A stretch of 47,888 nt of DNA from IMG/VR virus record IMGVR_UViG_2718218397_000005; one strand, written 5' to 3'. Shown piece by piece: positions 1 to 44,424 of the stretch. This DNA is from a virus (Duplodnaviria > Heunggongvirae > Uroviricota > Caudoviricetes). The notes below the pieces were generated by a model that saw only the letters and a list, made by a program, of their open reading frames with translations, was not told the DNA's origin and searched no databases. A program made the translations under genes and the position numbers. The stretch's first letter is position 1; each line of letters begins with the position of its first letter.

Positions 1-316
1 TATAATAAACTTACTTTTTTATCATTTTTCCACTTTAACAACATTTTGCTCCACTTTTCCACGATCAAACAACTTGAAATCTGGTTAAAATAACACGCAA
101 CACTATTCTTCTTCCTTGAGTCCGCCCGGAACTCGAAAAACAAACCGAGTTAAAGCCATTTTTCACAAAATCGATTTTGGGTCTCACCAAAATTACGGGG
201 TTGCATACGCATTCGTTTATTTTCGAACGTGTACATACAAATATGCACAAAAATAATCAAAATTATTTTCTGAGATGCATTATGATATGAACACCAATTT
301 CGTATAGAGTCTCACT

Positions 317-907
317 ATGTCTCGAATTTTTGCTTACTGTCGGATATCAACGCTGGATCAGACCATCGAAAATCAACGCCGGGAAATCGAAAGTGCAGGT
401 TTTAAAATCAAACCTCAGCAAATAATCGAAGAACACATTAGCGGCTCAGCAGCAACCAGTGAGCGTCCTGGTTTTAACCGGTTGCTTGCTCGCCTGAAAT
501 GTGGTGATCAATTGATTGTGACAAAACTGGATCGCCTTGGTTGTAATGCAATGGATATCAGGAAAACAGTGGAACAACTGACCGAAACAGGTATCAGAGT
601 GCATTGCTTAGCATTGGGGGGCATTGACCTGACCAGTCCAACAGGAAAAATGATGATGCACGTAATTTCAGCAGTCGCTGAATTTGAACGAGACCTTTTA
701 CTTGAACGCACTCATTCCGGGATAGTAAGAGCCCGCGGCGCAGGGAAACGTTTTGGTCGACCACCTGTGTTAAATGAAGAACAGAAACAGGTGGCATTCG
801 AACGAATTAAGTCAGGTGTAAGTATAAGTGCCATTGCCCGGGAATTCAAAACCTCGCGGCAAACCATTTTAAGAGCCAAAGCAAAACTTCAGACACCTGA
901 CATATAA
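317..907 (+). CDS. pin: Serine recombinase, DNA invertase (Pin/Gin/Hin family)
   Basis: 196-aa ORF; N-terminal resolvase catalytic motif YCRISTLDQ with Ser nucleophile; C-terminal HTH ([17 protein letters not shown]); sits beside stf-tfa as in e14/Rac/Qin-type prophages. Confidence 0.85.
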
Positions 908-1004
908 AAAATAATCTCGGTGTGAGATGCTTTACGTCTTCCAAGCCCCCTTCCTTGCCGTAAATGGAAAGATACATCTAATTATAGAATTTATATGTTT
1001 TACC

Positions 1005-1580
1005 CTACGGCAGTGCTGGCCATTCAATATCCTGTGCAGTTGACGTATCAACACGGTTCAGCAACACCCGATACTTTTTCCAGGCTTCCAGCAATGAGGT
1101 TTCTTCCTCCGTTGCGATTTCCAGATCTACAGCATCCTGAAGTGGCGCAATATGCTCACTGGCTACCTGCATCAGGCTGTTTTTTGTTTCTTCCGCCTCT
1201 CGGATCCGGAACAGTTTTTCTGCTTCTGCATCTTTCACCCAGGCTGTGCCGTTCCACTTCTGAAACTCCCCTTCCGGCGATAACCAGGTAACATTTTCCG
1301 GTAACGGACCGAGTTCAGAAATAAATAACGCGTCCCCTGACGCTACGTCATAAACCGTTTTACCCCGATGGTCTTCAACGAGATGCCACGATGCCTTATC
1401 ACTGTTGAAAACAGCCACAAAGCCAGCAGGAATATCTGGTGGTGCAATATCGGTACTGTTTGCTGGCAGACCTGTATGAGGCGGAATATATGCGTCACCT
1501 TCACCAATAAATTCATTAGTTCCGGCCAGCAGATTATAAATTTTTATGGTCCGTGGTTGTTCACTCATTCTGAATGCCAT
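1005..1580 (-). CDS. tfa: Tail fiber assembly protein
   Basis: 191-aa ORF ([24 protein letters not shown]...) resembling lambda Tfa; start overlaps stf stop (ATGA). Confidence 0.85.
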
Positions 1581-4546
1581 TATGCAAGCCTCACAATATA
1601 GTTAAATGCGATGTTTTTGACGGTGTTTTCCGCGTTACCAGCAGCGTTAACGGTGATGGTGTGTCCATGTGAACCAATCGCAACGGAGTGCGTATGAGCA
1701 CCAATACCGACAGTATGCGCGTGTGCACCTGCAGATGCTGCTGTGCCGGACAGTGAATGGCTATGATTACCATCTGTACTGGTATTCGCTAACCACCCCG
1801 TAGACATACCTACTGAGCCTTGTACACCCCAGGTATTTTGACCTGAGCTTGTATAACCATATTGATAAGTATCTTTAAAAACACTGGGGTTAAATCGACG
1901 GCCATCTCTATGGCTGTGATTACCAGCTGCATTCGTGCTGCCACTTAAACTATGGGTATGCGCACCAGTGTTATTCGTGGATTTAGTGCCGTAATCAAAC
2001 GACGATGTGGTTTTCGTCCCCAAATCCGTACTGGATGCGCTGGCGCTGTGGGTATGCGATTTAATGCCGTCCTGTTCCTGAGACAATACGGCCCGACCAC
2101 TGGCAGGTTTGCCCTTAATCGTCCAGCCACGCATATCAGGGATCACGCCTGACGGATAAGCGGCTGCAAGTTTCGGGTATGCAGATTTGTCAAAAGTCTG
2201 CCCCTGCATCAGGGCATAGCCAGACGGAACGGTATCTGATGGCCACGGGATTGGTGCGCCAGGCGGATAAAACTGCTCTGATGGCGTATAGAGTGAATAA
2301 ACTGTACCGTCCGTTAACCCTTCCGGCTTATTAGCAGAATATGCTGGTGACGTATGAATCGTCACGCTGGCATTACTGGTATAATCCCATTGAATATTTA
2401 CACCAGTCGCATAATTTCCGATTGCAACGTAAATATCGTAAGTATCACCAGATGTATTGACCCAGGCAAAATTTGTAAACCCTGTCGATGTGCGCTGCCA
2501 TAACGCACCAGTAATCCCCTTCGGATTACCATTACCTGCACGTAAAACAAGTTCAGATATACCTGCCTGTTGAGGTGACCCCACGTTAAATCCAGCGCCA
2601 CCAATCAACGTAATTGAAACAACAGAACTCGCCTGTGGCATGGTTACCGTTGCTAATTTGAACCAACCAGCACCACCGCTGAATGACATTGTTGTTGAGT
2701 TAAGCGTACCAATATCTTTCGGCGTCAGTGTTATATCCGCTGAAAGCGCCTTACCATTCACCTTACGGGCAGAAGGTACCCGACCATTCGCATTGTCATT
2801 AGCTGCTTTCACTGCTTTCGGTGTCGCAGCAAGCGTTTCAGATGTGCTGTTGGTTGCACTACTGAGCTGGACAATTCCTTTTTGTGCTGTCGTAGCGTCC
2901 TGTGCGGTGTATTTCCCGTTAGCCAGGTCATACGCGGCCTTAACGGCTTTTGGCGTTGCCGCCTGTGACTCGGAAGTGCTGTTAGTCGCACTGCTGAGCT
3001 GAACTATCCCTTTCTGTGCTGTCGTTGCATCCTGTGCGGTGTATTTCCCGTTAGCCAGGTCATTCGCGGCCTTAACGGCTTTTGGCGTTGCCGCCTGTGA
3101 CTCGGAAGTGCTGTTGGTCGCACTGCTGAGCTGTACTATCCCCTTTTTCGTCGTGCTCGCATCCTCAAGCGCCACGGCGGATGCAATATCCTCTGCCCGT
3201 TTTGCTGCTGTCTCGGCGCGCGTTGCCGCGGATTCCGCCGTACTTTTGCTCTGTGCTGCCGCTGCCGCACTGCCAGCAGCCTCTGTCGCCTTCGTGGATG
3301 CCGTCGTGGCGCTGCCCCTCGCTGCTGACGCCTGTCTGGTCGCCTCATCTTTTGAAGCAGACGCAGATGATGCCGATGACGCCGCCGAACTGGCGGACGA
3401 TGCGGCAGCCGTTTTTGAGGATTCTGCGCTGGTTTCCGACGCTTTCGCGTTCGTTTCGGATGTCTTCGCTGCGGAAGCAGACCTCGCTGCTGCGCTGGCC
3501 TGTTCAGTGGCTTCGCCAGCCTTCGTTGTGGCTGTTGAAGCGGATGATGCGGCGCTTTCTGCCGATTTTCCGGCGGCGGTGGCACTGACTGCTGCCTCCT
3601 CTGCCTTAATGGACGCCTCACGGGCCGATGATGCAGCTGCTGTCTCAGAGTCTGCCGCAGCTGAGGCGCTCTGTTCCGCTGCCGTTTCAGAAGACCTGGC
3701 ATTCGTCTCGGACGTTTTTGCCGCCTTCACGGAATTTCCTGCCGCCGTTGCCGAGGAGGCTGCACTGCTGGCGCTTGTGGAGGCGTTCGTTTCTGATGAT
3801 TTTGCCGCCTCTTTGGAGGCCGCCGCATCTCTGGCTGAAGTGGCGGCTTCTGACGCTTTCGTCGTCGCAGTGGATGCAGAAGTGGCTGCTGATTTTTGTG
3901 ACGCTGCAGCATTCGTTTCTGACGTTTTCGCCGCACCGGCACTGGTGGCCGCCGCGCTTTTTGAGGACTCTGCAGCGGCAGCACTTTTTGATGCTTCAGT
4001 GGCCTTTGTTGATGCCGTTCCTGCGCTGGAAGACGCCTCCTGAGCCGAAGTCGCGGCCTGTCCGGCTGACGTGCTGGCTGCACGCGCTGAGCCTGCAGCA
4101 TCAGTCGCATGGGTTGCCGCCTCACGGGCAGATGTGCCGGCATCACTGGCTGACTTCTTCGCGGCTGCCGTGTTCTGTGCCACCGCGGACGCGTTACGCG
4201 TCACCTCTTCCACCATCAGTTCAAAACGGCGCAGAGCCTCCGGACGGGCATCATCCTCCGTCATGGCACCGAGAAAATCATTCAGCGTACCGGGTCGGGA
4301 ATCTTCATACACGGTGATGGTCCCGGCATGTGACGGCGGGAATCCTTCCACCAACAGAATAACGCTGTACTGACCGTACTCAACGTCCATGCTGTAACGC
4401 CCGGCTTCATCCGGATTTTCTGAGGCCAGCGTGTTCACCACCACCGTGGTGCTGTTACGTTTTGCTTTCAGCTGGATTGTGCAGTTCTGTACCGGTTTTC
4501 CTGTGCCGTCTTTCAGTACACCTGAAATCTTTACTGCCATATTCAC
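1580..4546 (-). CDS. stf: Side tail fiber protein
   Basis: 988-aa ORF; N-terminus [26 protein letters not shown]... is lambda Stf-like; long Ala/Ser/Thr-rich region; three ~44-aa tandem repeats; His-rich C-terminal region (HTHS/HSHS). Confidence 0.85.
2785..3180. repeat. Tandem ~132-bp direct repeats (3 copies) inside stf
   Basis: Near-identical 132-bp units at 2917-3048 and 3049-3180 with a more divergent copy at 2785-2916; encode repeated [42 protein letters not shown]. Confidence 0.8.
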
Positions 4547-4551
4547 CCCAC

Positions 4552-4577
4552 AAAAAAGCCCGCCTGAACCGGCGGGC
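4552..4577 (-). terminator. Rho-independent terminator downstream of lom
   Basis: Stem GCCCGCC (4558-4564) / GGCGGGC (4571-4577), 6-nt loop, followed on the minus strand by a T6 tract (A6 at 4552-4557 on plus strand). Confidence 0.6.
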
Positions 4578-4604
4578 TGTCATAACACTGTGTTACCTGG
4601 CTAA

Positions 4605-5204
4605 TCAGAACTTATAACCGACACCCACGATGAAACCGTCAGTGCGCCAGTCGCCACTGCCGGAGCCTTCATAAGCAATATCAATGGCCACGGATTCGGT
4701 CGGGTTAAACTGCACGCCAGCTCCCCACGCCAGAGACGTGTTGCTGTGGCGACCGTCATCACTTCCGGTCAGCACGTCGTGCGTTTTCCCCTTGTTGTCA
4801 GTTACGCGGAGATAATCCCCGGAGAAAGTCGACACACGGCTGTAAGCCACACCCGCCATCGCATACGCGCTGAACCATTCATTCACGCGCACAGACGGCC
4901 CCGCCATTACGCTGAACCAGCGGTTACGAACGGAATCTTCATGCCAGCGAGTATCGCTGTAATGGGTCAGCTGGCGATTCTTGTCTCCTGCATAGCTGAA
5001 TGACGTCACCAGCCCCAGCGTATCCGTAAACTCATAACGGTATTTCACGTTAATCCCGTTCAGATCATCACTGCCGGGAACGTTGGTCCGGGCATGAAGA
5101 TACCCCGCGCTCAGCGTGGACTGATGTTCAGACGCCCATGCAGGCGCACCGGATACGGCCAGACAAATGGCTGCGGACAAAATGGCGGCACAAACTTTAC
5201 GCAT
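4605..5204 (-). CDS. lom: Outer membrane protein Lom (Ail/Lom family)
   Basis: 199-aa ORF with signal peptide (MRKVCAAILSAAICLAVSGAPAWA) and beta-barrel ending in F (..VGVGYKF); sits between J and stf as in lambda. Confidence 0.85.
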   Translation of the reverse strand: MRKVCAAILSAAICLAVSGAPAWASEHQSTLSAGYLHARTNVPGSDDLNGINVKYRYEFTDTLGLVTSFSYAGDKNRQLTHYSDTRWHEDSVRNRWFSVMAGPSVRVNEWFSAYAMAGVAYSRVSTFSGDYLRVTDNKGKTHDVLTGSDDGRHSNTSLAWGAGVQFNPTESVAIDIAYEGSGSGDWRTDGFIVGVGYKF

Positions 5205-5274: not shown

Positions 5275-8200
5275 TCAACGAATACTGATGCCGGAAGCCG
5301 CTTTTTTGGTCACAATCACCGTACAGTCGGTGATATTGCCTGCCCCCTGATTGCCTTTCTGGAAAATCTTAAACTCCAGAGTGACGCTACCACCACCACT
5401 AGGCATATCAATAACTGCACTGTAACTACCGGGAATGGCCCCTTTAGTTTCTCTGGATGCGATTAATACGCCGTTTTTGCGAACTTCAAAACCATAACCC
5501 GTGTATCGCGTGCCTCCCGGGTTATTTCCGCTCCCCGGATCGTCATACGCTATACCGTTAAAAATAATGGGCGGAATAATAATCTGGCGGTCAAAGTTAT
5601 GATCATCGCTGATGGTGACTGTAACCGTACCGTTTGGTGTTTCCGTGTTACCCCACGTACCGACTTTTTTCGGGAAGGCTTTTGATACAGCTTTAACGAA
5701 ATCTCCTCTGACCTGGGTCGCCTCCAGCATGCCCTTAATCGTACAGTTCTGGTTAATCGTGACATTGTTGAGCGTTCCTGAGTTCGCATTCACACTGCCA
5801 CTGATATCCGCATTTTTCGCCGTCAGTCTCCCGTCTGATGTCAGGGAAAATGCCGGAGGATTACCGCCGCTGGTAATGGTGGGGGCCGTCAGGCGTTTCA
5901 GGAACACTTCATTCATGAATATCTGATCGCCCTGACCAACAAACATCGGCTTTGTGTTGCCATTCGCAGGATTAATCATCGCAATCCTGTCTGCTGCCAG
6001 CAGCACCTGACTCTGCATGCCGTCAGGGGTGTTCTCAATACCGGCACCGATACCCGCAATATAAAGGCGTCCGTCCTGCATCTGCTGCAGCTTCACTGCC
6101 CACATGCTGTTCAGGTTATTATTTGTATCAACCTGAACCTTCTGTATCTGCTGGATCGCTGCACTCTGGTCTTCCAGTTTCTTATTGACGGTCTGTGTTA
6201 TTTCATTGCTGACATCCGTTATGGACGTCCTGATTTCAGTCAGGTCAGGCGCAAGCTGACCGTTATCAATCTGCGTCCACAGCTCCTGAGCCAGATGGGT
6301 TTTCCCTATCTCGCCTTTGAAAAAATCCAGATAGCCTGATGCATCATCACTCGGCTGACCGACAGCCTCCACGAATGCCGATTTGCCAACGGTGTTCACA
6401 CTGCGAACGTAAAAATAATAATCATGGCCCGGTTTGATATTGATACTGGCGGCTATCCAGTACAGTGCCGTACCAAGATAACGCGCGCTGGTTTCAACCT
6501 GCCTGATATCCGCAATCCGTTTTTCCGAGAACCAGAACTCAAACTGTACCGTCGGGTCATAAACCGCAAGATGCGGCGTGGCGGTTATCTGAAAATAGCC
6601 CGGCGTCAGCTCAATCCGCGACGGCGCTGCCGGTGCGGCAATCCGGAACGATACCGACGCCGGATCGCCCTGCTGCCCCCACGCATTTACTGCCCGGACT
6701 GTCAGCCTGTAGTTCCCCAGAGCCAGTTGTGTGAAGCGGTAAGTGGTTTCCGTCGTCCGGGCCGTGCTGACCAGCCGCTCACGGCCGTCATCTGCTGCCA
6801 CGGTCAGGCGAAGCAGGAAGCTCACGCCCTTCACCACCTTCGGCGTGTCCCAGCGCGCCAGCACCTGGTATTCCCCGCTGTCTGCGGTGACTTCTGCGGT
6901 CAGGTGCTTCACCGCTGGCGGCGTGACACCATTTACCGTGCCGCTCTGGTCGCCGTCAAAGTGCGCCCCGTTATCCACGATGGCCTCTTTTTCCGGTACA
7001 TGCTGCACGGCGGTGATGGCATACGTGCCGTCGTCGTTCTCACGGATACTCACGCAGCGGAACAGGCGCTGGCGCAACGTCGGCAGCTTCAGCCCCCATA
7101 CGCTGTATTCAGCAACGCCGTCAGGAACACGGCTCACTTTCACCTTCACGCCGTCGGTGACGGACTGAACCTCCACGCTGACCGGACTCCCCTGCCCGTC
7201 AACCAGGCTTATCAGCGTGGTGCCGGAAGATGGCAGCGTGATTTCACGGTCGAGCGTCAGCGTCCGGGTCTGGCTGTTTACCGCCAGCACGCGCCCGCCG
7301 GTGCGGATACCGGCATAGTCATCATCGCAGATTTCAATGACATCGCCCGGTACATGGCGAAGCCCTTCGGCACCCACGCTGAAGTCCACGGTCTGCGTTT
7401 CCAGCAGTTCTGTTTTAATCAGCCACAGCCCGGCGCGGTGTGCCTGCCCCCGGCTGGTACAGCCAAAAGCATCCATCTTCGTGACGTTACGACCGTAACG
7501 GGCAATGGCCTGCGTGTCCTCCACAAGCTCTGTCGCCGTCTCCCAGCCGTTATTCGGGTCAATCCAGTTCACCTCAACGGCATTATGGCGGTCCTTCAGG
7601 GCGCTGAAGCTGTAGCGGAACGGCGCACCATCATCCGGCATCACCACATTACTGCGGTTATAGGTCCACACCTTATCCGACGGTCGGTCCTGCACGAACG
7701 TCAGCGTCTGCCCGTTCCATACCGGCATACAGCGCATCGCAGAGCAGAAATCACTGAGCACATCCCACGCCTTGCGCTGTGTGGTCAGGTACGCATTACA
7801 GGTGATGCGCGGCTCCGTGCCGCCAAAACCGTCCGGCACCGACTGATCGCAATGCTGGCCGATGACATACAGCGCCCATTTGTCCACATCCGCCGCACCA
7901 AGACGTTTCCCCATGCCGTAGCGCGGATGGGTCAGCATATCCCACAGACACCAGGCCATGTTGTTGCTGTATGCTGGCTTAAACGTTCCGTCCCAGATAC
8001 CGCTGTATTGCCGCGTCTGCGGGTTATAGTTCGACGGCACCTGCAGAATGCGCCCGCGAAGATGATAATTACGGCTCACCTGCTGGCTGCCGAACTGCTC
8101 CGAATCCACCTGTACGCCGACCAGTGCCGTATTCGGGTAGCACTGTTTCACATCGATGATTTCGGTGTATGACGACCAGAGCGTTTTGTTCTGCAGCTGG

Positions 8201-8772
8201 TCTGTGGTGCTGTCCGGCGTCATCCTGCGCATCCGGATACTGAACGGGCGCGGCGGCAGGTTATCCACCACCACCGAGGCCAGATACTGCGAGGTGGTTT
8301 TGCCCTTAATGGTGATGTCTTTTTCCGTCACCCAGCCACCATTACGCTGTATCTGAACCAGCAGGCGAACTTCCGACGGATTCCGGTCCCCCTTTGAGGT
8401 GGTTTCCACCAGTGCCTGCACACCGAAGGTAAAGCGCAGTCGGTCAATGTTTGCCGACGTGATGGTCCGGGTGATCGGCGTGTCGTATTTCACTTCCGTA
8501 CCCAGCACCGTCTCGGAGCCGGAGGATTCAAATCCCTCCGGCGGTGTCTGCTCCTGCTCACCGGCCCGGAACACCACCGTGACGCCGGAGATGTTGGTAT
8601 TCCCCTCACTGTCCAGCACTGGCGTACTGTTCAGCAGCACGCTTTTTAATCCATCCACCGGACCTTCAACCGGCCCTTCGCTGATGGCATCGATCACACT
8701 CAGCAACTGCGTGGACTTCAGGTTGTCCTTCGTTTCGCGCGGAGTATGCCCCTTACTGCTGCCTTTACCCAT
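5275..8772 (-). CDS. J: Tail tip / host specificity protein J
   Basis: 1165-aa ORF, N-terminus [24 protein letters not shown]... as lambda gpJ; fibronectin-III-like central repeats; 99 nt longer than lambda J as remembered (3399 nt). Confidence 0.9.
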
Positions 8773-8832: not shown

Positions 8833-9504
8833 TCAACGACCAATCACCACAACCTGACCACCGTCCCCTTCGTCTGCCGTGCTGATCTCCTGAGAGACCA
8901 CCCGCGACCCCACGCGCATTTCACCGTACAGAACGGGCAGAACATTGCCCTGGGCAACCATGTTATCCAGTGAGGAGAAATAGGTGTTCTGCTTACCGTT
9001 ATCCGTTGTCTGTGTACGGGGAGTTCTGGCTTTCGGTGCCAGCATCTGCGCCACACCACCGAGCACCATACTGGCACCGAGAGAAAACAGGATGCCGGTC
9101 ATACCACCGGCCCCAATGGCTGCCCCCCATGCTGCAAGGGTGGCTCCGGCGGTAAAGAATGATCCGGCAATGGCGGCAGCCCCCAGGACAATCTGGAATA
9201 CGCCACCTGACTTGGCCCCGGCGACTCTGGGAACAATATGAATCACAGCGCCATCAGGCAGAGTCTCATGTAACTGAGCCGTTAACCCGGACGTGCTGAC
9301 GTCCCGCCCGGCAATCCGTACCTGATACCAGCCGTCGCTCAGTTTCTGACGAAACGCCGGGAGCTGTGTGGCCAGTGCCCGGATGGCTTCAGCCCCCGTT
9401 TTCACACGAAGGTCGATGCGGCGACCAAATCGTTGTAAATCCCCGTAAAGGCAGATGCGCGCCATGCCCGGTGACGCCAGAGGGAGTGTGTGCGTCGCTG
9501 CCAT
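8833..9504 (-). CDS. I: Tail assembly protein I
   Basis: 223-aa ORF (MAATHTLPLASPGMARICLYGDLQRFGRR...), lambda gpI-like; 60-nt gap to J and 103-nt overlap with K as in lambda. Confidence 0.85.
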   Translation of the reverse strand: MAATHTLPLASPGMARICLYGDLQRFGRRIDLRVKTGAEAIRALATQLPAFRQKLSDGWYQVRIAGRDVSTSGLTAQLHETLPDGAVIHIVPRVAGAKSGGVFQIVLGAAAIAGSFFTAGATLAAWGAAIGAGGMTGILFSLGASMVLGGVAQMLAPKARTPRTQTTDNGKQNTYFSSLDNMVAQGNVLPVLYGEMRVGSRVVSQEISTADEGDGGQVVVIGR

Positions 9505-10145
9505 TTGTCGGTGTACCTCTCTCGTTTGCTCAGTTGTTCAGGAATATGGTGCAGCAGCTCGCCGTCGCCGCAGTAAATTGCGGCGTGATTCGGCACCGAT
9601 GAACCAAAACAGCACAGCAGCACATCGCCCGGCTGTGCCGCTGACAACGGCACCTGATACAGCCCCGTCGCCTCCAGATTATCCAGATAGAGATTCTGGC
9701 CGTTACGCCACCAGTCATCCTCACGATGAAAGTCCGGCATCTCAATCCCCGCCAGATGATAAGCATCCCGGAACAGTGTGTAACAGTCCGTCACACCGTG
9801 CTCAAAGCGCCGCCCGGTGAGATGCGGCACACAGCGGAACTTATGAATCGTCCCCCGGCAGACCAGCCACCACGGCAAATCACTCTGCACCTGCAGCCGC
9901 CGGTCGGCCTCACTCAGCCAGGGTAGACCACCGGGGTGGCTGTGGACCAGCGCCACAATCTCACCCTGCATTTCTGCCTGCAGCCAGTCTTCCGGCGACA
10001 TACGGAAATACGCCTCCGGCTCACCGGAGATATTCACGCAGGGGAAATATCTTTCCCCCTCCGGCGTGCTTACCACGAAGCCGCACGACTCCGCTGGCGC
10101 ACATCGCCGGGCGTGCGCCAGAATCGCTGATTCTGTCTGTGTCAT
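9402..10145 (-). CDS. K: Tail assembly protein K (JAB/MPN plus NlpC/P60 domains)
   Basis: 247-aa ORF starting 5 nt after L stop; JAMM-like E..HSHP..SEAD motif and later Cys/His of NlpC/P60; lambda-annotated K start corresponds to internal Met49 at 10001. Confidence 0.8.
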   Translation of the reverse strand: MTQTESAILAHARRCAPAESCGFVVSTPEGERYFPCVNISGEPEAYFRMSPEDWLQAEMQGEIVALVHSHPGGLPWLSEADRRLQVQSDLPWWLVCRGTIHKFRCVPHLTGRRFEHGVTDCYTLFRDAYHLAGIEMPDFHREDDWWRNGQNLYLDNLEATGLYQVPLSAAQPGDVLLCCFGSSVPNHAAIYCGDGELLHHIPEQLSKRERYTDKWQRRTHSLWRHRAWRASAFTGIYNDLVAASTFV

Positions 10146-10150
10146 GGGAT

Positions 10151-10849
10151 TTACTGCGAAAGTTTGTTAATGGAAAGGAAGCCGCCAAAGTTGCCGACGT
10201 TATTGCGGAACTTACAACCGCTCAGGCATTTGCTGCATTTATCCTTCGTGATATCGGACGTTGGCTGGTCATATTCATCCGCGACAGCCGGACCGCTATA
10301 ACCGCACTCGTCACCGCGATAGGTCCAGGTGCAGGTGTTGGCCAGCATGATACGTCCCGGAAAAACAGCGCCATCCGTTTCCGTCGGCGTGGACAGTACA
10401 AAGGAGGCACTCACCGCGCTCAGTTCGCTGCACTGCTCAATGCGCCAGCGGCTGATCACCTCCTGCTCCGGATCGGCGTAACTGTTTCCGTTGACGAAGT
10501 TCACCGCATCCAGAAAACGGGCGTAAACCTTACGCCGGACCACCGTTCCGCCGACCAGACTCTGCATATCTTCCGCCATCCCGGTGACCATACCGTACAG
10601 GTTAGAAACCGTCAGCGTGGGGCGCGTACTGGTGCCTTTGCCATTCAGTTCAAAACCGCTCCCCTGAATGGGATACGGCTGATACTGTCGCCCCTGCCAG
10701 GTGACCGGCTCACCTTTTTCGTTCTGCTCATTACAGAAAAAATAACGTTCTCCACCGACCTCTGTCAGGTCGATTTCCCAGAGCACCACGCTGGCCGACT
10801 GCTCCGCACGGGTGCATTCATTCAGTGTTTCCTGCCGGATATCCTGCAT
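10151..10849 (-). CDS. L: Minor tail protein L
   Basis: 232-aa ORF (MQDIRQETLNECTRAEQSASVVLWEIDLTEVGGERYFF...), lambda gpL-like, C-terminal Cys cluster. Confidence 0.9.
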   Translation of the reverse strand: MQDIRQETLNECTRAEQSASVVLWEIDLTEVGGERYFFCNEQNEKGEPVTWQGRQYQPYPIQGSGFELNGKGTSTRPTLTVSNLYGMVTGMAEDMQSLVGGTVVRRKVYARFLDAVNFVNGNSYADPEQEVISRWRIEQCSELSAVSASFVLSTPTETDGAVFPGRIMLANTCTWTYRGDECGYSGPAVADEYDQPTSDITKDKCSKCLSGCKFRNNVGNFGGFLSINKLSQ

Positions 10850-27112: not shown

Positions 27113-28195
27113 ATGAAAAAATTAACAGTGGCAATTTCTGCTGTAGCTGCATCAGTACTGATGGCGATGTCTGCTCAGGCAGCTGAAATTTATAATAAAG
27201 ACAGTAACAAGCTGGATCTGTACGGGAAAGTTAATGCTAAGCACTACTTCTCCTCTAATGATGCAGATGATGGTGATACTACTTATGCCCGTCTTGGCTT
27301 CAAAGGTGAAACCCAAATCAACGATCAACTGACTGGTTTCGGTCAGTGGGAATATGAATTCAAAGGCAACCGCGCTGAATCTCAAGGTTCCTCCAAAGAT
27401 AAAACCCGTCTTGCCTTCGCTGGCCTGAAATTCGGTGACTACGGCTCCATCGATTATGGCCGTAACTACGGTGTAGCATACGATATTGGTGCATGGACCG
27501 ACGTTCTGCCAGAATTCGGTGGCGATACCTGGACCCAAACAGATGTATTCATGACTGGTCGCACCACAGGTGTTGCAACTTATCGTAACAATGACTTCTT
27601 TGGTCTGGTTGATGGTCTGAACTTTGCTGCTCAGTATCAGGGTAAAAATGACCGTACTGACGTAACTCAAGCTAATGGTGATGGTTTCGGTTTCTCCACT
27701 ACTTATGAGTATGAAGGTTTCGGCGTAGGTGCAACCTATGCTAAATCTGACCGCACTAATAATCAGGTTATCTACGGTAACAACGGTCTGAATGCTTCTG
27801 GTCAAAATGCTGAAGTATGGGCAGCTGGTCTGAAATATGATGCGAACAACATCTATCTGGCCACCACCTATTCTGAAACCCAGAACATGACTGTTTTTGG
27901 TAATAACCATATTGCCAACAAAGCACAAAACTTCGAAGCTGTTGCACAATATCAGTTCGACTTCGGCCTGCGTCCATCCGTTGCTTACCTGCATTCTAAA
28001 GGAAAAGACTTGGGTGTTTGGGGTGATCAGGACCTGGTTGAATATGTTGATGTAGGTGCAACCTATTACTTCAACAAAAATATGTCCACTTTTGTTGACT
28101 ACAAAATCAACCTGATTGATAAGAGCGATTTCACGAAAGCATCTGGCGTTGCTACCGATGATATCGTTGCTGTAGGTATGGTTTACCAGTTCTAA
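27113..28195 (+). CDS. nmpC: Outer membrane porin, OmpC/OmpF family (phage-borne Lc/NmpC type)
   Basis: 360-aa ORF with signal peptide ([23 protein letters not shown]), porin motifs, C-terminal ..VAVGMVYQF; sits between Q and S on the opposite strand as in DLP12/PA-2. Confidence 0.85.
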
Positions 28196-29743: not shown

Positions 29744-31048
<1,305 letters not shown>

Positions 31049-32959: not shown

Positions 32960-34486
32960 TCAAAAATAAACCTCACCATCAACCATATATTTGAGAGTAC
33001 TTATCGCCTGCTGGGCGGATATTGTTTTCATTAAAGGATAGTGTTTAAAAACAATGCCATTCATAAAATAGATATCACAGGTTTTATTATCTGTATTGAT
33101 TATGATTTTTTCGAATGTTTTATAGGCAAGTGTACGACATAGCTCTCGCCCATTTTTACTGGTTAAGTCAATAGCATGAAAATCACCAAGTGAACTCACC
33201 GCTTTACTCTTCAAAGTTTTTAATGATACAGAAGCCCTTCGTAATTCCTTATCTAATACTCTGATTTTTTCTGCTATAGCGGTAACTTCAGGCGCAACAG
33301 ATAATGCAGCAATTAAATTATTAATTTTCATCTGGAGCTCAATAATTTTCAACTCTAAAGTTTCATTAGCATCTTTCTTGTTTTCAACTGGTTGGATTTT
33401 ACTACAATTAAAAAGCAACTCATTAATGATATTATAATCAACCAAATCTCTCTTTATTGATGGCCTGTCACATCGATGCAGTCTTCTCATCGGACAAACA
33501 TAATAGCCATGCAAACTTCCAGATACCGCATGAACAATCATGGTATTACCACAAGCCTCGCACTTCATAACTGTTCGAAGTAGATTTATCAACATAGGAT
33601 TTTTGCTACTATTGCTAATACCAAAAGGTGCCAACCGAATTTCCTGTACAGCGTAAAACAAATCATCTGATATGACTCTGGGATAATAGCCAGCGATTTC
33701 ACTTATTCCTTTACCTCTTGCACGATATGAAGGTACGCATATACCTATCAGAGCTTTATTCGCTAATAATTTTTCAATTACAGAAGGTCCCCATGCACTT
33801 TCTTTTCCTGAGAAATTCTTTACAGCATGATCATTTAAATACTTGGCTATTGCATTCAATGAGCGCCTTTCCATCCTGAGTTTAAAAATTAGCTCAATAG
33901 TTTTCACCCTGTCGGGGTCTGGAACAAAAGCCGTTCTTTTGTCATCTAAGGAGAGCCATCTCGGACAAGACGCCGTCATAATCGTACCTGATTCCAGTGC
34001 ATCCTGCCGTTTTTTCTTCCATGATAATTTAACCCGACTTGACTTTATCTCGCTTTCTTCATTTGCCCTTTGTGCTATAAGTATGGCTTTTATTAATGAA
34101 TATGGCTCATTCAAAGAGTCAATATTATAGACTGTATTGTCGCAAAGAGTTATAACATCAATACCGTGATTCAAAATCAATTTCAGACGTTCAATCGCTT
34201 CACCGACTTTTTCTCTTGAAAGTCTGTCCAGACTTTCAACTAACAATGTAGTTCCTGGCAATATATAACCATGCTCTATAGCATCTAAAAATTCCGAAAA
34301 AGCTCCTGATTGTGCATGCTTTCCTTTGAATGCACTTAATCCTAAATCTTCATATGTTATGGTATCAAGATAATAATCACTATTTACCTTTAACCATTCA
34401 GCAATAAGTCTTCTCTGTCGGTTTAATGAGTCGCCAGACATCTGACCTGGTGATGAAAATCGCATATATGCTATGGCTTTTTTCAT
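32960..34486 (-). CDS. ybcK: Large serine recombinase (YbcK-like)
   Basis: 508-aa ORF; N-terminal resolvase catalytic domain (AIAYMRFSSPGQ..), recombinase domain, zinc-ribbon (CEACGNTMIVH...YYVCPMRRLHRCDRP), C-terminal coiled coil; AT-rich. Confidence 0.8.
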   Translation of the reverse strand: MKKAIAYMRFSSPGQMSGDSLNRQRRLIAEWLKVNSDYYLDTITYEDLGLSAFKGKHAQSGAFSEFLDAIEHGYILPGTTLLVESLDRLSREKVGEAIERLKLILNHGIDVITLCDNTVYNIDSLNEPYSLIKAILIAQRANEESEIKSSRVKLSWKKKRQDALESGTIMTASCPRWLSLDDKRTAFVPDPDRVKTIELIFKLRMERRSLNAIAKYLNDHAVKNFSGKESAWGPSVIEKLLANKALIGICVPSYRARGKGISEIAGYYPRVISDDLFYAVQEIRLAPFGISNSSKNPMLINLLRTVMKCEACGNTMIVHAVSGSLHGYYVCPMRRLHRCDRPSIKRDLVDYNIINELLFNCSKIQPVENKKDANETLELKIIELQMKINNLIAALSVAPEVTAIAEKIRVLDKELRRASVSLKTLKSKAVSSLGDFHAIDLTSKNGRELCRTLAYKTFEKIIINTDNKTCDIYFMNGIVFKHYPLMKTISAQQAISTLKYMVDGEVYF

Positions 34487-38836: not shown

Positions 38837-39298
38837 ATGAGAATACTAGGTGTTAGGGCGGCGCCCAAAGTTACATCTTTTGTTGTATATTGCACTGATG
38901 AGTCTGCACTCAAATGTGTTGATGTTATTAAAATACCTTCGACCTTAGACACACCAGAAAAATTAAAGTATGTGCGAAATAACATCCTCGACATTCTTAA
39001 TTTATATAATGTTGAATTAGCTGCTATACGCGTTACTGAATCAAACTCTGATAATCTTAGCATTGACCGCCTTTATATAGAAGCTGTTATTCAAGAAGCA
39101 TTTTCAAGCAGTGATGTAAGAAGATATTACACCATTAGAAAATCTGGTATGAAGTCATCATTGAACCTAACAGAGATCGAGTATAAAGAAATATTGAAGT
39201 CACACCGTAATATAAATGGAATCGATAATTCTGGTTTTACAACTGAAACAAATGAAGCTGTTTTGGCTGCACTATCTGCGGAGGTAAGGGGATGCTGA
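38837..39298 (+). CDS. Hypothetical protein, first gene of a cI-linked cassette (rexA position)
   Basis: 153-aa ORF MRILGVRAAPKVTSFVVYCTDESALKCVDVIKIPSTLDT...; AT-rich; 7-nt overlap with the kinase gene. Confidence 0.55.
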   Translation: MRILGVRAAPKVTSFVVYCTDESALKCVDVIKIPSTLDTPEKLKYVRNNILDILNLYNVELAAIRVTESNSDNLSIDRLYIEAVIQEAFSSSDVRRYYTIRKSGMKSSLNLTEIEYKEILKSHRNINGIDNSGFTTETNEAVLAALSAEVRGC

Positions 39299-40338
39299 CT
39301 CCATACAAAAGAGCTGATGTAGCATTCGAATGGATTCGTGATCTAGAAGAACAGGGTTGTTTTTCAAAAGTATATCTGGCTCATGACAGACACCTAGCTC
39401 ATGACTTGGTGATTAAAGAAATAGAAAAAAAAGAAAACATTAACCACGACGACTACTTTAATGAAGCAAGGCTTCTCTATAAACATGCACATCCAAATAT
39501 TGTGCAAGTTCAGTATGCTGCTCAATGTGAGAGCAATATCTATATAGCCATGCCATTTTATCATAATGGTTCGCTAAACCAATTAATAAAAAAGATTAAT
39601 CTTACGAGCAGGGAGATAATACGGTATTCTATTCAATTTTTAAGTGGGCTTTATCATATACACTCAAAAGGTCTTATGCATTTTGATATAAAACCTAATA
39701 ACATCATGATATCAAACAGAAATGAGGCCATGCTATCTGACTTTGGATTGTCTCAGTTAGTCAATGAGGAATCGAGAGCTGCGCCTGAGTTTGGATATCA
39801 TTTTCATGTGCCACCGGAATATTTTTCTTTATCAACAAATGATTATAATTTCACATATGACATATATCAGGCAGGATTAACCATATATAGAATGTGTGTT
39901 GGATATGATAATTTTGAAAGAGAAAGATCTGCATTTAGAACGATTGAACAACTCAGAGAGTCGATAATTAATGGCTCCTATCCATTAAAAGAGTATCCTT
40001 CCCACATACATAAAAAATTGATAACAATAGTAAACAAATGCATTCATGTAGATCCAAATGAAAGATATCAATCCGTACTAGACGTACTAAACGATCTCTC
40101 AGCTATAAGTGATGGCGTTCTTGACTGGCGTCTACAGATGACAAAACCAACTAACGGCACATATGAATGGCAAAAAAAGTCTGGGGACGTTATACTGTCT
40201 ATAGTTTTTGACGCAGAAAATTCGTCTACTACTGGTTTTCGTTTATACGATGGTGGGCGGAAAAGGCGTGCTACGAACTTAACAATATCCTCAGGATGTA
40301 CCCCTACAAAACTGTATAGGTTATTAAAGGATAACTGA
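39292..40338 (+). CDS. stk: Eukaryotic-like (Hanks-type) protein kinase
   Basis: 348-aa ORF with beta3 Lys (LVIKEI), catalytic loop HFDIKPNN, DFG motif (LSDFGLS) and PPEYF activation-segment motif. Confidence 0.8.
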   Translation: MLTPYKRADVAFEWIRDLEEQGCFSKVYLAHDRHLAHDLVIKEIEKKENINHDDYFNEARLLYKHAHPNIVQVQYAAQCESNIYIAMPFYHNGSLNQLIKKINLTSREIIRYSIQFLSGLYHIHSKGLMHFDIKPNNIMISNRNEAMLSDFGLSQLVNEESRAAPEFGYHFHVPPEYFSLSTNDYNFTYDIYQAGLTIYRMCVGYDNFERERSAFRTIEQLRESIINGSYPLKEYPSHIHKKLITIVNKCIHVDPNERYQSVLDVLNDLSAISDGVLDWRLQMTKPTNGTYEWQKKSGDVILSIVFDAENSSTTGFRLYDGGRKRRATNLTISSGCTPTKLYRLLKDN

Positions 40339-43028: not shown

Positions 43029-43183
43029 CGCATCCTCACGATAATATCCGGGTAGGCGCGATCACTTTCGTCTACTCCGTTACAAAGCGAGGCTGGGTAT
43101 TTCCCGGGCTTTCTGTTATCCGAAATCCGCTGAAAGCCCAGCGGCTGGCTGAGGAGATAAATAATAAACGGGAGGCGGTATGA
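43025..43183 (+). CDS. Small hypothetical protein (lambda small-orf-like)
   Basis: Manually translated 52-aa [55 protein letters not shown]; ATG overlaps exo stop, stop overlaps next gene start. Confidence 0.4.
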
Positions 43184-44424
43184 ACGAGGCAGCAATAATT
43201 ATTGTCCCAACAGACATCAGCAAGAAAATTCGCGAAATAGAAGAGTCCTACAACAGATATATAAATGAATTTCGCATCCCTAATGATCATAAGATAATCG
43301 TGAATTATTCAGCAGGAAAAGACAGCACTGCCACACTCGCAGTGGCGCACACATTATTCGGCAAACAGGTACATGCTGTTATGGCAGACACGGATAATGA
43401 GCATAATCTAACTGTCGAATTCGCCAGGAGCATTCATGAGCAGATCGGTTGTAGCCCTGTGCAGGTTGTGAAGCGGATTTACACTGAAGAAGATTTTGCC
43501 AAACGACGAATTTATCTGCAAAAAAACTGGTCTAAACGACAGATGCTCCGCATGGGAGCATACCGTGGCATAGTCATGCCTTCCCTCGCACGTTCTGACA
43601 CCAAATTCGGGCAAGCCTGGAAGCGCACAGCAGAACGCTGGGGAATTGAGTTCGAAACTGCTCTTGATGCTGCGCTTTCCGTTATGCACCCATCCGGTAA
43701 TAGCTTTTTGGATTGCTCCCTTCTGCATGGCAAGTTCCCTATGCTGCGCGACCGATTCTGTACAGACGAACTGAAAATTCAGATAGCTTTCGACGCAGCC
43801 ATAAAGCCGCTCCTTGATGCTGGCGATGTTATCGTACAATGGTCTGGTGTTCGCGCGGATGAGTCCTCTAAGCACGCTGGATATGAGAGGTTTTCCCGCG
43901 ATATGCGCGACGCCGATTTTCTCTACAACTTCCTGCCGCTCCACAAATGGACGGCTGAGGACGTATTCGCAGTTCACAAATATTTCGGAATTAAGCCAAA
44001 TCCACTTTATATGCAAGGTGCGTCTCGTGTTGGCTGCATGAATTGCGTGCTATGCAACAAAGAGGAAATTGCAGAGACGGCTGCGCGCTGGCCAGAGCAC
44101 ATCAAAAAGCACAAACAATGGGAGTTGAAGGTACGCCTTGCTAGTAGATGGGTACACTGGATGAGCGTAGGAGAGATAAGCCAACGCTGGATGAAACAGT
44201 TCAATCTGCCACTTGGTCGAAATATTCAACTTTTTGGGCTAAAACCTGATGTGCAACACATCGACTGGTCAGGATTTTATGGTCCTCGTGGAGATCTTAA
44301 TTCTCCGGGTGTTTATGAAGTCGTAGAGTGGGCAAAAACAGGGCGCGGTGGCAAGGTCTACGATCTTGTAAAAGCAAGTCTCGATATAGAGGTTTGCTCT
44401 TCACGCTACGGTCTGTGCGAATAA
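43180..44424 (+). CDS. PAPS-reductase-like PP-loop ATP pyrophosphatase family protein
   Basis: 414-aa ORF with PP-loop motif (VNYSAGKDST) and later Cys residues (..RVGCMNCVLC..). Confidence 0.7.
   Translation: MNEAAIIIVPTDISKKIREIEESYNRYINEFRIPNDHKIIVNYSAGKDSTATLAVAHTLFGKQVHAVMADTDNEHNLTVEFARSIHEQIGCSPVQVVKRIYTEEDFAKRRIYLQKNWSKRQMLRMGAYRGIVMPSLARSDTKFGQAWKRTAERWGIEFETALDAALSVMHPSGNSFLDCSLLHGKFPMLRDRFCTDELKIQIAFDAAIKPLLDAGDVIVQWSGVRADESSKHAGYERFSRDMRDADFLYNFLPLHKWTAEDVFAVHKYFGIKPNPLYMQGASRVGCMNCVLCNKEEIAETAARWPEHIKKHKQWELKVRLASRWVHWMSVGEISQRWMKQFNLPLGRNIQLFGLKPDVQHIDWSGFYGPRGDLNSPGVYEVVEWAKTGRGGKVYDLVKASLDIEVCSSRYGLCE

Follow-up and report, generated by a model that had tools for sequence, protein, structure and literature searches.

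The small serine recombinases PinR (Rac prophage, b1374) and PinQ (Qin prophage, b1545) of Escherichia coli K-12 have been annotated as "putative DNA invertases" for decades. Their genes are found next to those of a side tail fibre and its assembly chaperone (stfR/tfaR and stfQ/tfaQ, respectively), in the common order stf-tfa-pin-ydfK/ynaE-ynaM/ynfT. The invertases of the Din family (PinE with the P segment of prophage e14, Gin with the G segment of phage Mu, Cin of phage P1, and Hin) are likewise serine recombinases of about 190 residues encoded beside fibre and tfa genes. Two other systems are close to parts of the locus described here. Phage lambda (Ur-lambda) carries stf and tfa after J and lom, and a group of TnpR resolvases from Tn3-family transposons (P0135, P0224, P0205 and P0193; enterobacterial plasmids, Hafnia, Klebsiella and Shewanella) has the same recognition helix in its helix-turn-helix motif as the Pin protein of this locus.

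The window analysed here, a stretch of 47,888 nucleotides from a tailed phage, shows the Rac/Qin gene order at one end:

1-316, plus strand: ydfK-pin intergenic region; the window begins right after the ydfK stop codon
317-907, plus strand: pin, PinR/PinQ-type small serine recombinase, 196 residues (Pfam Resolvase and HTH_7)
908-1004, no strand: pin-tfa spacer of 97 bp, between convergent genes
1005-1580, minus strand: tfa, tail fibre assembly chaperone (Caudo_TAP), 95% identical to lambda Tfa
1580-4540, minus strand: stf, lambda-type side tail fibre, 986 residues from the RefSeq start (ATG 4540); the frame is open to GTG 4546
4605-5204, minus strand: lom (Ail/Lom outer-membrane protein), context gene
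5275-8772, minus strand: J, tail tip host-specificity protein, context gene

This gene set is how the right arm of lambdoid prophages of the Rac/Qin/DLP12 type normally ends. The prophage of the window is of the DLP12 type, intact and located at the argU site, and it differs in this from K-12 Rac and Qin. J, lom, stf and tfa can be assigned with confidence as late genes of this prophage. Downstream of them, pin, ydfK and ynaM form a cargo cassette, convergent with tfa, at the position of the b-region of lambda, where that phage has ea47, ea31 and ea59 at the spot occupied by pin-ydfK in the window. The features listed by the first-pass annotation are real, apart from small errors in coordinates and one in orientation. 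The pin gene had been described as divergent from tfa/stf, but pin and tfa are convergent, with their 3′ ends facing each other across a gap that had been rightly estimated at about 100 bp.

The gene order and spacing are identical in Rac and Qin (both with the 97-bp and 316-bp spacers), in eight further Escherichia/Shigella loci, and in three strains with an intact prophage of the DLP12 type (KSC207, SE11 and 2015C-3905). The pin gene of SE11 is an exact match to that of the window while its stf differs, and many strains match at 99.9%. The sequence of the 316-bp region is almost invariant across the Rac, Qin and DLP12-type copies. Of 5426 complete E. coli genomes, 2749-2864 (about half) carry the module, J-lom-stf-tfa facing pin-ydfK-ynaM, as do about 11 isolated lambdoid phages; pin is kept in plaque-forming phages. 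It is already known from Rac, Qin and intact DLP12-type lambdoid prophages. As it is found in K-12 and in thousands of genomes, the present account is a re-description of this module, with nothing new in its composition. The best overall explanation, which we consider probable, is that a lambda-type fibre module stands beside a stranded, tnpR-derived pin gene that has no substrate in cis.

The Pin protein is 98% identical to K-12 PinR and 97% identical to PinQ over 196 residues; residue 115 is His in the window and Gln in K-12. In comparison, its identity is only 38% to PinE, a true invertase, and about 40% to Gin. No close relationship to Gin, Hin, Cin or PinE was found, and the closest proteins beyond PinR and PinQ are instead the putative TnpR resolvases of Tn3-family transposons, with 77-83% amino acid identity (77-78% for the relatives from Hafnia, Klebsiella and Shewanella). 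The recognition helix, SRQTILR, is that of the TnpR relatives and not the STLYK/R of PinE and Gin. The label "Pin-type invertase" used by the first-pass annotation is therefore not appropriate. In HMM scores, Pin is somewhat closer to Gin (E value 4e-30) than to gamma-delta resolvase (3e-22), and the distinction between resolvase and invertase is therefore not clear-cut at long range. Pin was probably never a tail-fibre invertase, and its "orphan" status is thus the normal state, long known in Rac and Qin.

More distant homologues, with 60-69% identity, are found in Mycoavidus, Oxalobacteraceae, Sulfitobacter and Parasedimentitalea. Their genes adjoin IS elements, a group II intron or ordinary genes, and in these four taxa never tail fibre genes. 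Such neighbourhoods show no link to fibres and are otherwise uninformative.

The nucleotide sequence also speaks to the origin of the gene. The features that bear on it are:

237-946, plus strand: tnpR-derived cassette, starting 80 bp before pin and ending 39 bp after its stop codon
205-316, plus strand: what is left, on the tnpR side, of a Tn3-family res/promoter region, with degenerate half-sites
221, 267 and 298: starts of the degenerate half-sites TTTCGAACG, TTTCTGAGA and TTTCGTATA, respectively
Related Tn3-family element, for comparison: intact res, with the pairs TGACCGAAA-N8-TTTCGGACA and TGTCCGAAA-N14-TTTCGGATA

Rather than belonging to the Gin/Hin/Pin family of invertases, pin is a tnpR (resolvase) gene from a Tn3-family transposon that is left stranded in the phage, with the transposase missing and the res site reduced to a degenerate remnant. 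Positions 237-946 have 82% nucleotide identity to plasmid-borne Tn3-family tnpR genes, and the homology takes in pin, 39 bp downstream, and about 80-110 bp upstream. In the relatives from plasmids, Hafnia, Klebsiella and Shewanella, a divergent gene for a 994-residue transposase (DUF4158 and DDE_Tnp_Tn3) is located 159-160 bp away, an arrangement seen in at least nine loci among those listed. There is no DDE_Tnp_Tn3 gene beside pin, which is flanked by ydfK upstream and tfa downstream. Three related transposon elements have inverted pairs of half-sites, with the family consensus TGTCCGAAA, at fixed places (intergenic positions 46-71 and 86-117). In the window the half-sites are degenerate, with 5 mismatches in 18, and no half-site pair with three or fewer mismatches was found anywhere in the window (0.10 expected). 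A res-like pair with four mismatches inside gene J was rejected as a binding target, as such pairs are at chance level (1.83 expected). Compared to the TnpR group, Pin lacks an adjacent transposase, its res is degenerate, its catalytic Arg has become Cys, and selection on it is relaxed.

The classical host-range inversion switch is absent in cis, as the first-pass annotation had proposed: there are no crossover sites, no long inverted repeat, and no second tfa/stf. A tblastn search of the 47.9-kb window finds one tfa and one stf, in agreement with the claim that there is no inverted alternative copy, and no second pin either. Over the whole window, there are no long inverted repeats, no matches to the Din crossover sequence TTCTCCCAAACCAA at two or fewer mismatches, and none to the degenerate 26-bp Din consensus at three or fewer. 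Neither a crossover-flanked segment nor an inverted alternative fibre C-terminus or tfa was found. The Din systems have these elements, and their organization also differs. In e14, pinE and stfP share one reading direction, and pinE comes after the inverted tfaE-stfE′ copy, while pin in the window is convergent with tfa. Pin would appear to lack a substrate in cis and to leave the fibre of its phage unswitched, which would explain why an invertible segment is absent from every copy. In related genomes a tfa fragment, "tfaX", lies about 1.9 kb beyond pin. It was rejected as an alternative cassette, being in direct orientation and sharing only 132 nucleotides at 86% identity; it is the remnant of an older prophage.

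A local switch had nonetheless been suggested, with crossovers at a dyad upstream of pin and at an 8-bp motif, ACCGAGTT, inside tfa. The dyad had been placed at 139-160 and the motif at 1306-1313; the latter stands at 1308-1315, and the former is

130-151, no strand: dyad AACTCG-N10-CGAGTT

This reading is scarcely credible. In its favour, one copy of the dyad is present in the window where chance would give 0.03. There is no second copy in the window, however. The dyad has only the 8-mer in common with the motif at 1308-1315, and the three occurrences of ACCGAGTT in the window are not a significant excess over the 0.94 that chance predicts. The dyad lies outside the tnpR-derived cassette and has no likeness to the Din sites or to the res half-sites of the family, and in three diverged copies (L011, L018 and L019) mutations disrupt its arms with no compensating change. 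An inversion between the two sites would moreover cut tfa. Neither junction of pin is seen reversed in about 2800 genomes: 2762 of 2802 genomes have an uninterrupted ydfK-pin junction, here with near-complete coverage, and at the pin-tfa junction the sampled matches all show one orientation. Inversions in Rac and Qin were also not found by the authors of a recent study of e14 (PMC12529663). Other roles for the dyad fared no better. It does not fold better than shuffled sequences (z-score -0.7), no terminator-like site was found in positions 1-1004, and neither the single dyad nor the 8-mer behaves as a repeated site. The pin-tfa spacer has no significant structure.

Pin also differs from its transposon relatives at a catalytic residue:

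542-544, plus strand: Cys76 codon, TGT, at the catalytic Arg position (R71 of Tn3 and gamma-delta resolvases)

The motif KLDRLGRN of the relatives is KLDRLGCN in Pin, and as the relatives carry CGT here, TGT is a single C-to-T change. Position 76 is Arg in 115 of the 120 cluster representatives and Cys only in the five clusters of the PinR/PinQ lineage. The Arg was thus replaced by one C-to-T change in the lineage of almost all E. coli copies, including both PinR and PinQ of K-12. The equivalents of Y6, R8, S10, Q14, Q19, R45, D67 and R68 match the family consensus (Pin keeps Y7, R9, S11 and R73); at the D36 position, all scored members of the family have Glu (E39 in Pin). The catalytic core as defined in Tn3 resolvase (Y6, R8, S10, D36, R68 and R71) is therefore incomplete, with Cys76 in place of R71. 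The R71A and R71K mutants show no recombination, and cleavage is at least 1000-fold slower (PMC2794168), the importance of this Arg having been measured in Tn3 resolvase and not in Pin.

Selection on the gene has also changed. Within the Cys lineage dN/dS is 0.39, a value based on just 26 synonymous and 36 non-synonymous differences, while it is 0.03-0.08 among transposon tnpR genes, a 5-10-fold increase. The 196-codon frame is unbroken in both Cys lineages across a dS of 0.22, and frameshifted pin copies exist as well (L018 and L019). From sequence comparison, the view that Pin is catalytically crippled, and that its gene is still selected, though less strictly, for a role in trans that is weak or non-catalytic, seems to us about evenly balanced. 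Candidate roles would be DNA binding or the modulation of another recombinase. More specifically, PinR and PinQ could be a domesticated Tn3-family resolvase that has lost its res site and catalytic Arg and can no longer exchange strands. It would persist in half of all E. coli genomes by binding DNA or modulating recombinases, for example via PinE. This proposal is tentative.

Alternatively, pin could be a decaying, functionless relic that hitch-hikes beside ydfK at the prophage end. The loss of the catalytic Arg, the degenerate res, the missing transposase, the elevated dN/dS and the two frameshifted copies would all fit this. However, dN/dS still stands at 0.39, the reading frame has been kept over the divergence noted above, plaque-forming phages retain the gene, and phenotypes have been reported for its deletion (PMC12529663). 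We regard a simple relic as improbable.

Kirigo et al. (2025) have read PinQ as an active invertase (PMC12529663). According to this published view, PinR/PinQ are fully active in trans and flip the pix-flanked P segment of prophage e14 at its separate chromosomal site. This yields a chimera, StfE2, that keeps phage T2 from adsorbing, and the system would be a defence switch encoded by a prophage. Cells that survive T2 carry a 1797-bp inversion, the P segment is inverted in 88% with PinQ overproduced and in 26-30% in the controls, pinQ/pinR are induced 14-fold by T2, and deletion of pinQ lowers survival and sensitizes the cells to T2 (PMC12529663). That viable phages and about 2750 genomes keep the reading frame unbroken is consistent with an active protein. 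If the effect of PinQ on e14 is direct, Cys76 must be tolerated. On the other hand, every PinQ experiment was performed in pinE+ cells, and in a pinE deletion mutant that was still pinQ+ pinR+ the segment was locked (PMC12529663). The Cys in place of the catalytic Arg, the TnpR-like recognition helix, and the transposon resolvases as nearest relatives also argue against this view. Moreover, PinR/PinQ-type genes are present in about 2750-2860 genomes, compared to 1366 for pinE with the adjacent pix region (at least 80% coverage); from these marginal counts, at least half of the carriers lack that target. On balance we find direct inversion of e14 by PinR/PinQ unlikely. If instead Pin is crippled, and likewise if PinR/PinQ are a domesticated resolvase, the published PinQ-dependent inversion of the P segment would be indirect. 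A stranded tnpR gene with a Cys for its catalytic Arg therefore bears on how the 2025 defence model, in which PinQ inverts e14, is to be tested.

The fibre genes on the other side of the spacer are of the lambda type. The open reading frame at 1580-4546 (minus strand), annotated earlier as 988 residues, is real, and the RefSeq start gives a protein of 986 residues. Its domains are:

4133-4540, minus strand: N-terminal tail-attachment domain (PF08400; PDB 9e7m, E value 1.4e-51)
3161-4132, minus strand: residues 137-460, Ala/Ser/Thr-rich heptad-repeat (coiled-coil-type) shaft
2784-3179, minus strand: three tandem 132-bp units, which are three 44-residue Pfam Phage_fiber_2 repeats
1583-2305, minus strand: residues 746-986, collar domain and T4 gp37-like receptor-binding tip (PF07484, 2XGF)

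The lambda-like N-terminus noted earlier is confirmed by PF08400 and by 80% identity to residues 1-352 of lambda Stf. The His-rich tip is likewise real, with seven HxH motifs and homology to the T4 gp37 tip (2XGF, E value 2.8e-85), and is 71% identical to that of lambda. With the Caudo_TAP gene downstream, and J and lom before it, Stf has all the features of the lambda type. The Ala/Ser/Thr-rich segment, previously called low-complexity, is in fact a strict heptad repeat. Its self-identity is 0.38-0.42 at offsets of 7, 14 and so on to 42, and 0.13-0.25 at other offsets, and the repeat spacings in the DNA are mostly multiples of 21 nucleotides. Stf and Tfa together make a four-part side tail fibre, with attachment domain, heptad shaft, Phage_fiber_2 repeats and HxH tip, an architecture well established by these matches. 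Compared to lambda Stf (774 residues), the protein is longer, with a longer shaft and three Phage_fiber_2 units instead of one; K-12 StfR also has one.

The three 132-bp repeats had been described at 2785-3180, and are present at 2784-3179. Two of them share about 97% identity across some 115 bp. Related prophages do differ in the number of units, as had been expected: Stf proteins that are collinear in other respects have one unit at 898 residues, two at 942-944 and three at 986, with the alleles taken from protein clusters and record spans. One Stf of 898 residues shows an exact deletion of 88 residues and is 100% identical elsewhere. The number of units probably changes by unequal recombination or slippage between the near-identical copies, and the length of the fibre would therefore shift in steps of 44 residues. 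The clean alleles with one, two and three units provide a natural series for testing any effect of fibre length on adsorption.

The left end of the window carries pin, tfa and stf, followed by lom and J, as identified from the ORF listing and a Pfam scan:

317-907 (+): pin, a small serine recombinase of 196 aa (Resolvase, HTH_7)
1005-1580 (-): tfa, the side tail fibre chaperone (Caudo_TAP)
1580-4546 (-): stf, the side tail fibre (phage_tail_N, three Phage_fiber_2, Collar)
4605-5204 (-): lom
5275-8772 (-): J

In RefSeq copies, the start codon of stf is the ATG at 4540, and the protein has 986 aa. The pin and tfa genes are convergent, not divergent as the first-pass annotation described them, and are separated by a 97-bp gap. 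A full-length Rfam match to IS009 (RF02111, 226.7 bits) is located at 1039-1237 (-) and lies entirely inside tfa, in the 3′ part of its reading frame. This 'RNA family' match may simply be the conserved C-terminal coding block of tfa.

The pin-tfa-stf module is real, but it is an ordinary one that was already known. Positions 1-4700 have matches covering at least 80% of this stretch in 827 complete E. coli genomes, many of them at 99.9%; the annotations there read tail fibre, tail fibre assembly protein and pinR/pinQ recombinase. The Rac and Qin prophages of K-12 have the same order as here (stf-tfa-pin-ynaE/ydfK-ynaM/ynfT), with equal spacers of 97 and 316 bp, and this order is also found in further Escherichia and Shigella loci. 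The pin cassette is present in 2749-2864 of 5426 complete E. coli genomes and in about 11 isolated lambdoid phages (PhiR42_1, Turner, mEp460, 2H10 and Tritos, for example). The window itself is an intact prophage of the DLP12 type, located at argU and carrying intD, ybcK, rusA, quuD, an nmpC-type porin, essD and rrrD. In lambda, the homology to tfa runs about 10 bp beyond its stop codon before the sequences diverge, and pin-ydfK is therefore at the position of the lambda b region, whose genes are convergent with tfa, as pin is here. The window starts directly after ydfK. Just 3′ of this gene, at 28-62, a TCCAC(TTT) motif occurs three times in close spacing, and it is kept in all aligned Rac, Qin and DLP12-type copies.

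Pin shares 98% identity with PinR and 97% with PinQ of K-12, but only 38% with PinE of the e14 prophage. As its nearest kin are transposon TnpR proteins, its reading as an invertase is not supported. A search of 5.8 billion proteins finds many relatives at 75-85% identity. On E. coli plasmids and in Hafnia, Klebsiella and Shewanella, such relatives have a divergent transposase 159-160 bp away (994 aa, DUF4158 and DDE_Tnp_Tn3), which is the classic tnpA-res-tnpR layout of Tn3-family transposons. The nucleotide identity to the plasmid genes is 82% over 237-946, and weaker homology reaches upstream to about position 205 in a global alignment. Inverted TGTCCGAAA half-site pairs are located at fixed positions in three independent elements (26-bp and 32-bp sites). 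The equivalent half-sites in the window are degenerate, and no TGTCCGAAA pair with three or fewer mismatches is found anywhere in the 47.9 kb. The tnpA-linked relatives, the nucleotide identity and the degenerate half-sites together indicate that pin is a tnpR gene stranded without a transposase or a working res site. This origin accounts for the fact that no invertible segment ever adjoins pin.

The catalytic arginine of the family is replaced by Cys in Pin (CGT to TGT, 542-544). The motif KLDRLGCN is common to Pin, PinR, PinQ and a second prophage lineage (locus L024, 83% protein identity), whereas PinE, Gin, γδ resolvase and all transposon relatives have KLDRLGR(N/S/D). Arg is found at this position in 115 of 120 cluster representatives. 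The five clusters with Cys are the PinR/PinQ lineage, with about 3950 member sequences together, and the remaining catalytic positions agree with the family consensus. When the equivalent arginine of Tn3 resolvase is mutated (R71A, R71K), recombination is lost and cleavage becomes at least 1000-fold slower (PMC2794168). Comparison of the two Cys lineages gives a dN/dS ratio of 0.39, as against 0.03-0.08 among transposon tnpR genes; by this measure the constraint on pin is relaxed, yet not absent. At residue 115 (659-661) Pin has His, as do PinE and Gin at the aligned position, whereas Gln is the rule in the family (119 of 120 representatives, K-12 PinR and PinQ among them). This position is the site of Fis-independent Gin/Hin mutants.

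Arg-bearing pin copies exist in prophage context, and are rare. One of them, in an E. coli chromosome (L025, 6001-6591), is in the usual ynaE-pin-tfa context. Its near-identity to a plasmid transposon tnpR (dS 0.039) suggests recent gene conversion between plasmid transposon and prophage. An IS66 element splits the tfa gene next to this pin.

The first-pass annotation saw no inverted alternative tfa/stf, and indeed there is neither a second copy of tfa, stf or pin nor a long inverted repeat in the window. The e14 pix core and a degenerate Din-family 26-bp consensus have no match in it. Of the 2802 genomes matching the ydfK-pin junction, 2762 have it intact. The pin-tfa junction has one orientation in every sampled row, its partial matches being mosaic boundaries within tfa. 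BLAST searches with Rac and Qin by Kirigo et al. gave inversions in e14 only (PMC12529663). The dyad upstream of pin, proposed as a crossover site, is present at 130-151 (rather than 139-160), but this role is unsupported: in diverged copies the arms carry uncompensated mutations, and folding is no better than that of shuffled sequences. The ACCGAGTT motif is likewise present, at 1308-1315 instead of 1306-1313. In a related locus (L001, 6189-6401), about 1.9 kb past pin and outside the window, a truncated, 'tfaX'-like pseudogene in the orientation of tfa follows a SAM-methyltransferase gene. It has 132 nt in common with tfa at 86%, and seems to be left over from an older prophage at the DLP12 site.

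PinQ has been reported to invert the e14 P segment in trans, blocking T2 adsorption (PMC12529663). However, a direct catalytic role is unproven and appears doubtful, because PinQ was overproduced in pinE+ cells only and the segment is stated to be locked in the pinE deletion mutant (PMC12529663), the Arg is missing, the recognition helix of PinR/PinQ is TnpR-type, and an e14-type pinE region is possible in at most half of the pinR/Q carriers. An indirect or regulatory role is an alternative that we only infer.

The three tandem 132-bp repeats of stf are confirmed (2784-3179, as against 2785-3180 in the first-pass annotation), and, as anticipated there, their number varies among related prophages. 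Lambda and StfR have one unit, PhiR42_1 two and the window three. Database Stf forms of 898 aa (19 clusters) have an exact 88-aa deletion relative to Stf here, and one of these proteins (P0009) is 100% identical outside it; forms of 942-944 aa have an exact 44-aa deletion. In complete genomes, the record spans are 604 bp for the 3-unit allele and 472 or 391 bp for 2-unit alleles. Two of the units share about 97% identity along some 115 bp, ample for unequal recombination.

The N-terminus of Stf is lambda-like as described, with 80% identity to lambda Stf over residues 1-352; the identity is 71% over the tip, and 95% between the two Tfa proteins. The Ala/Ser/Thr-rich stretch (residues 137-460), earlier called low-complexity, is present; its period is strictly 7 residues, which fits a coiled-coil shaft. 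The tip is His-rich, with seven HxH motifs, and matches the needle domain of T4 gp37 (2XGF, E 3e-85). In the related prophage L024, stf and tfa are separated by an inserted macro-domain protein gene (9343-10245); cargo is unusual at this position.

Elsewhere in the prophage, besides the tyrosine integrase intD at its end, there is a second serine recombinase, the 508-aa large type (32960-34486 (-); Resolvase, Recombinase and Zn_ribbon_recom), which corresponds to ybcK of DLP12. The cargo genes (39292-40338 (+), 27113-28195 (+) and 43180-44424 (+)) comprise a eukaryote-like Ser/Thr protein kinase adjoining the repressor gene, an nmpC-type porin and a PAPS-reductase-domain protein. The Hfq-binding sRNA isrC (RF01387) is matched over its full length at 29867-29989 (+), with 150 bits, near the nin/Q region by comparison with an annotated DLP12-type prophage.
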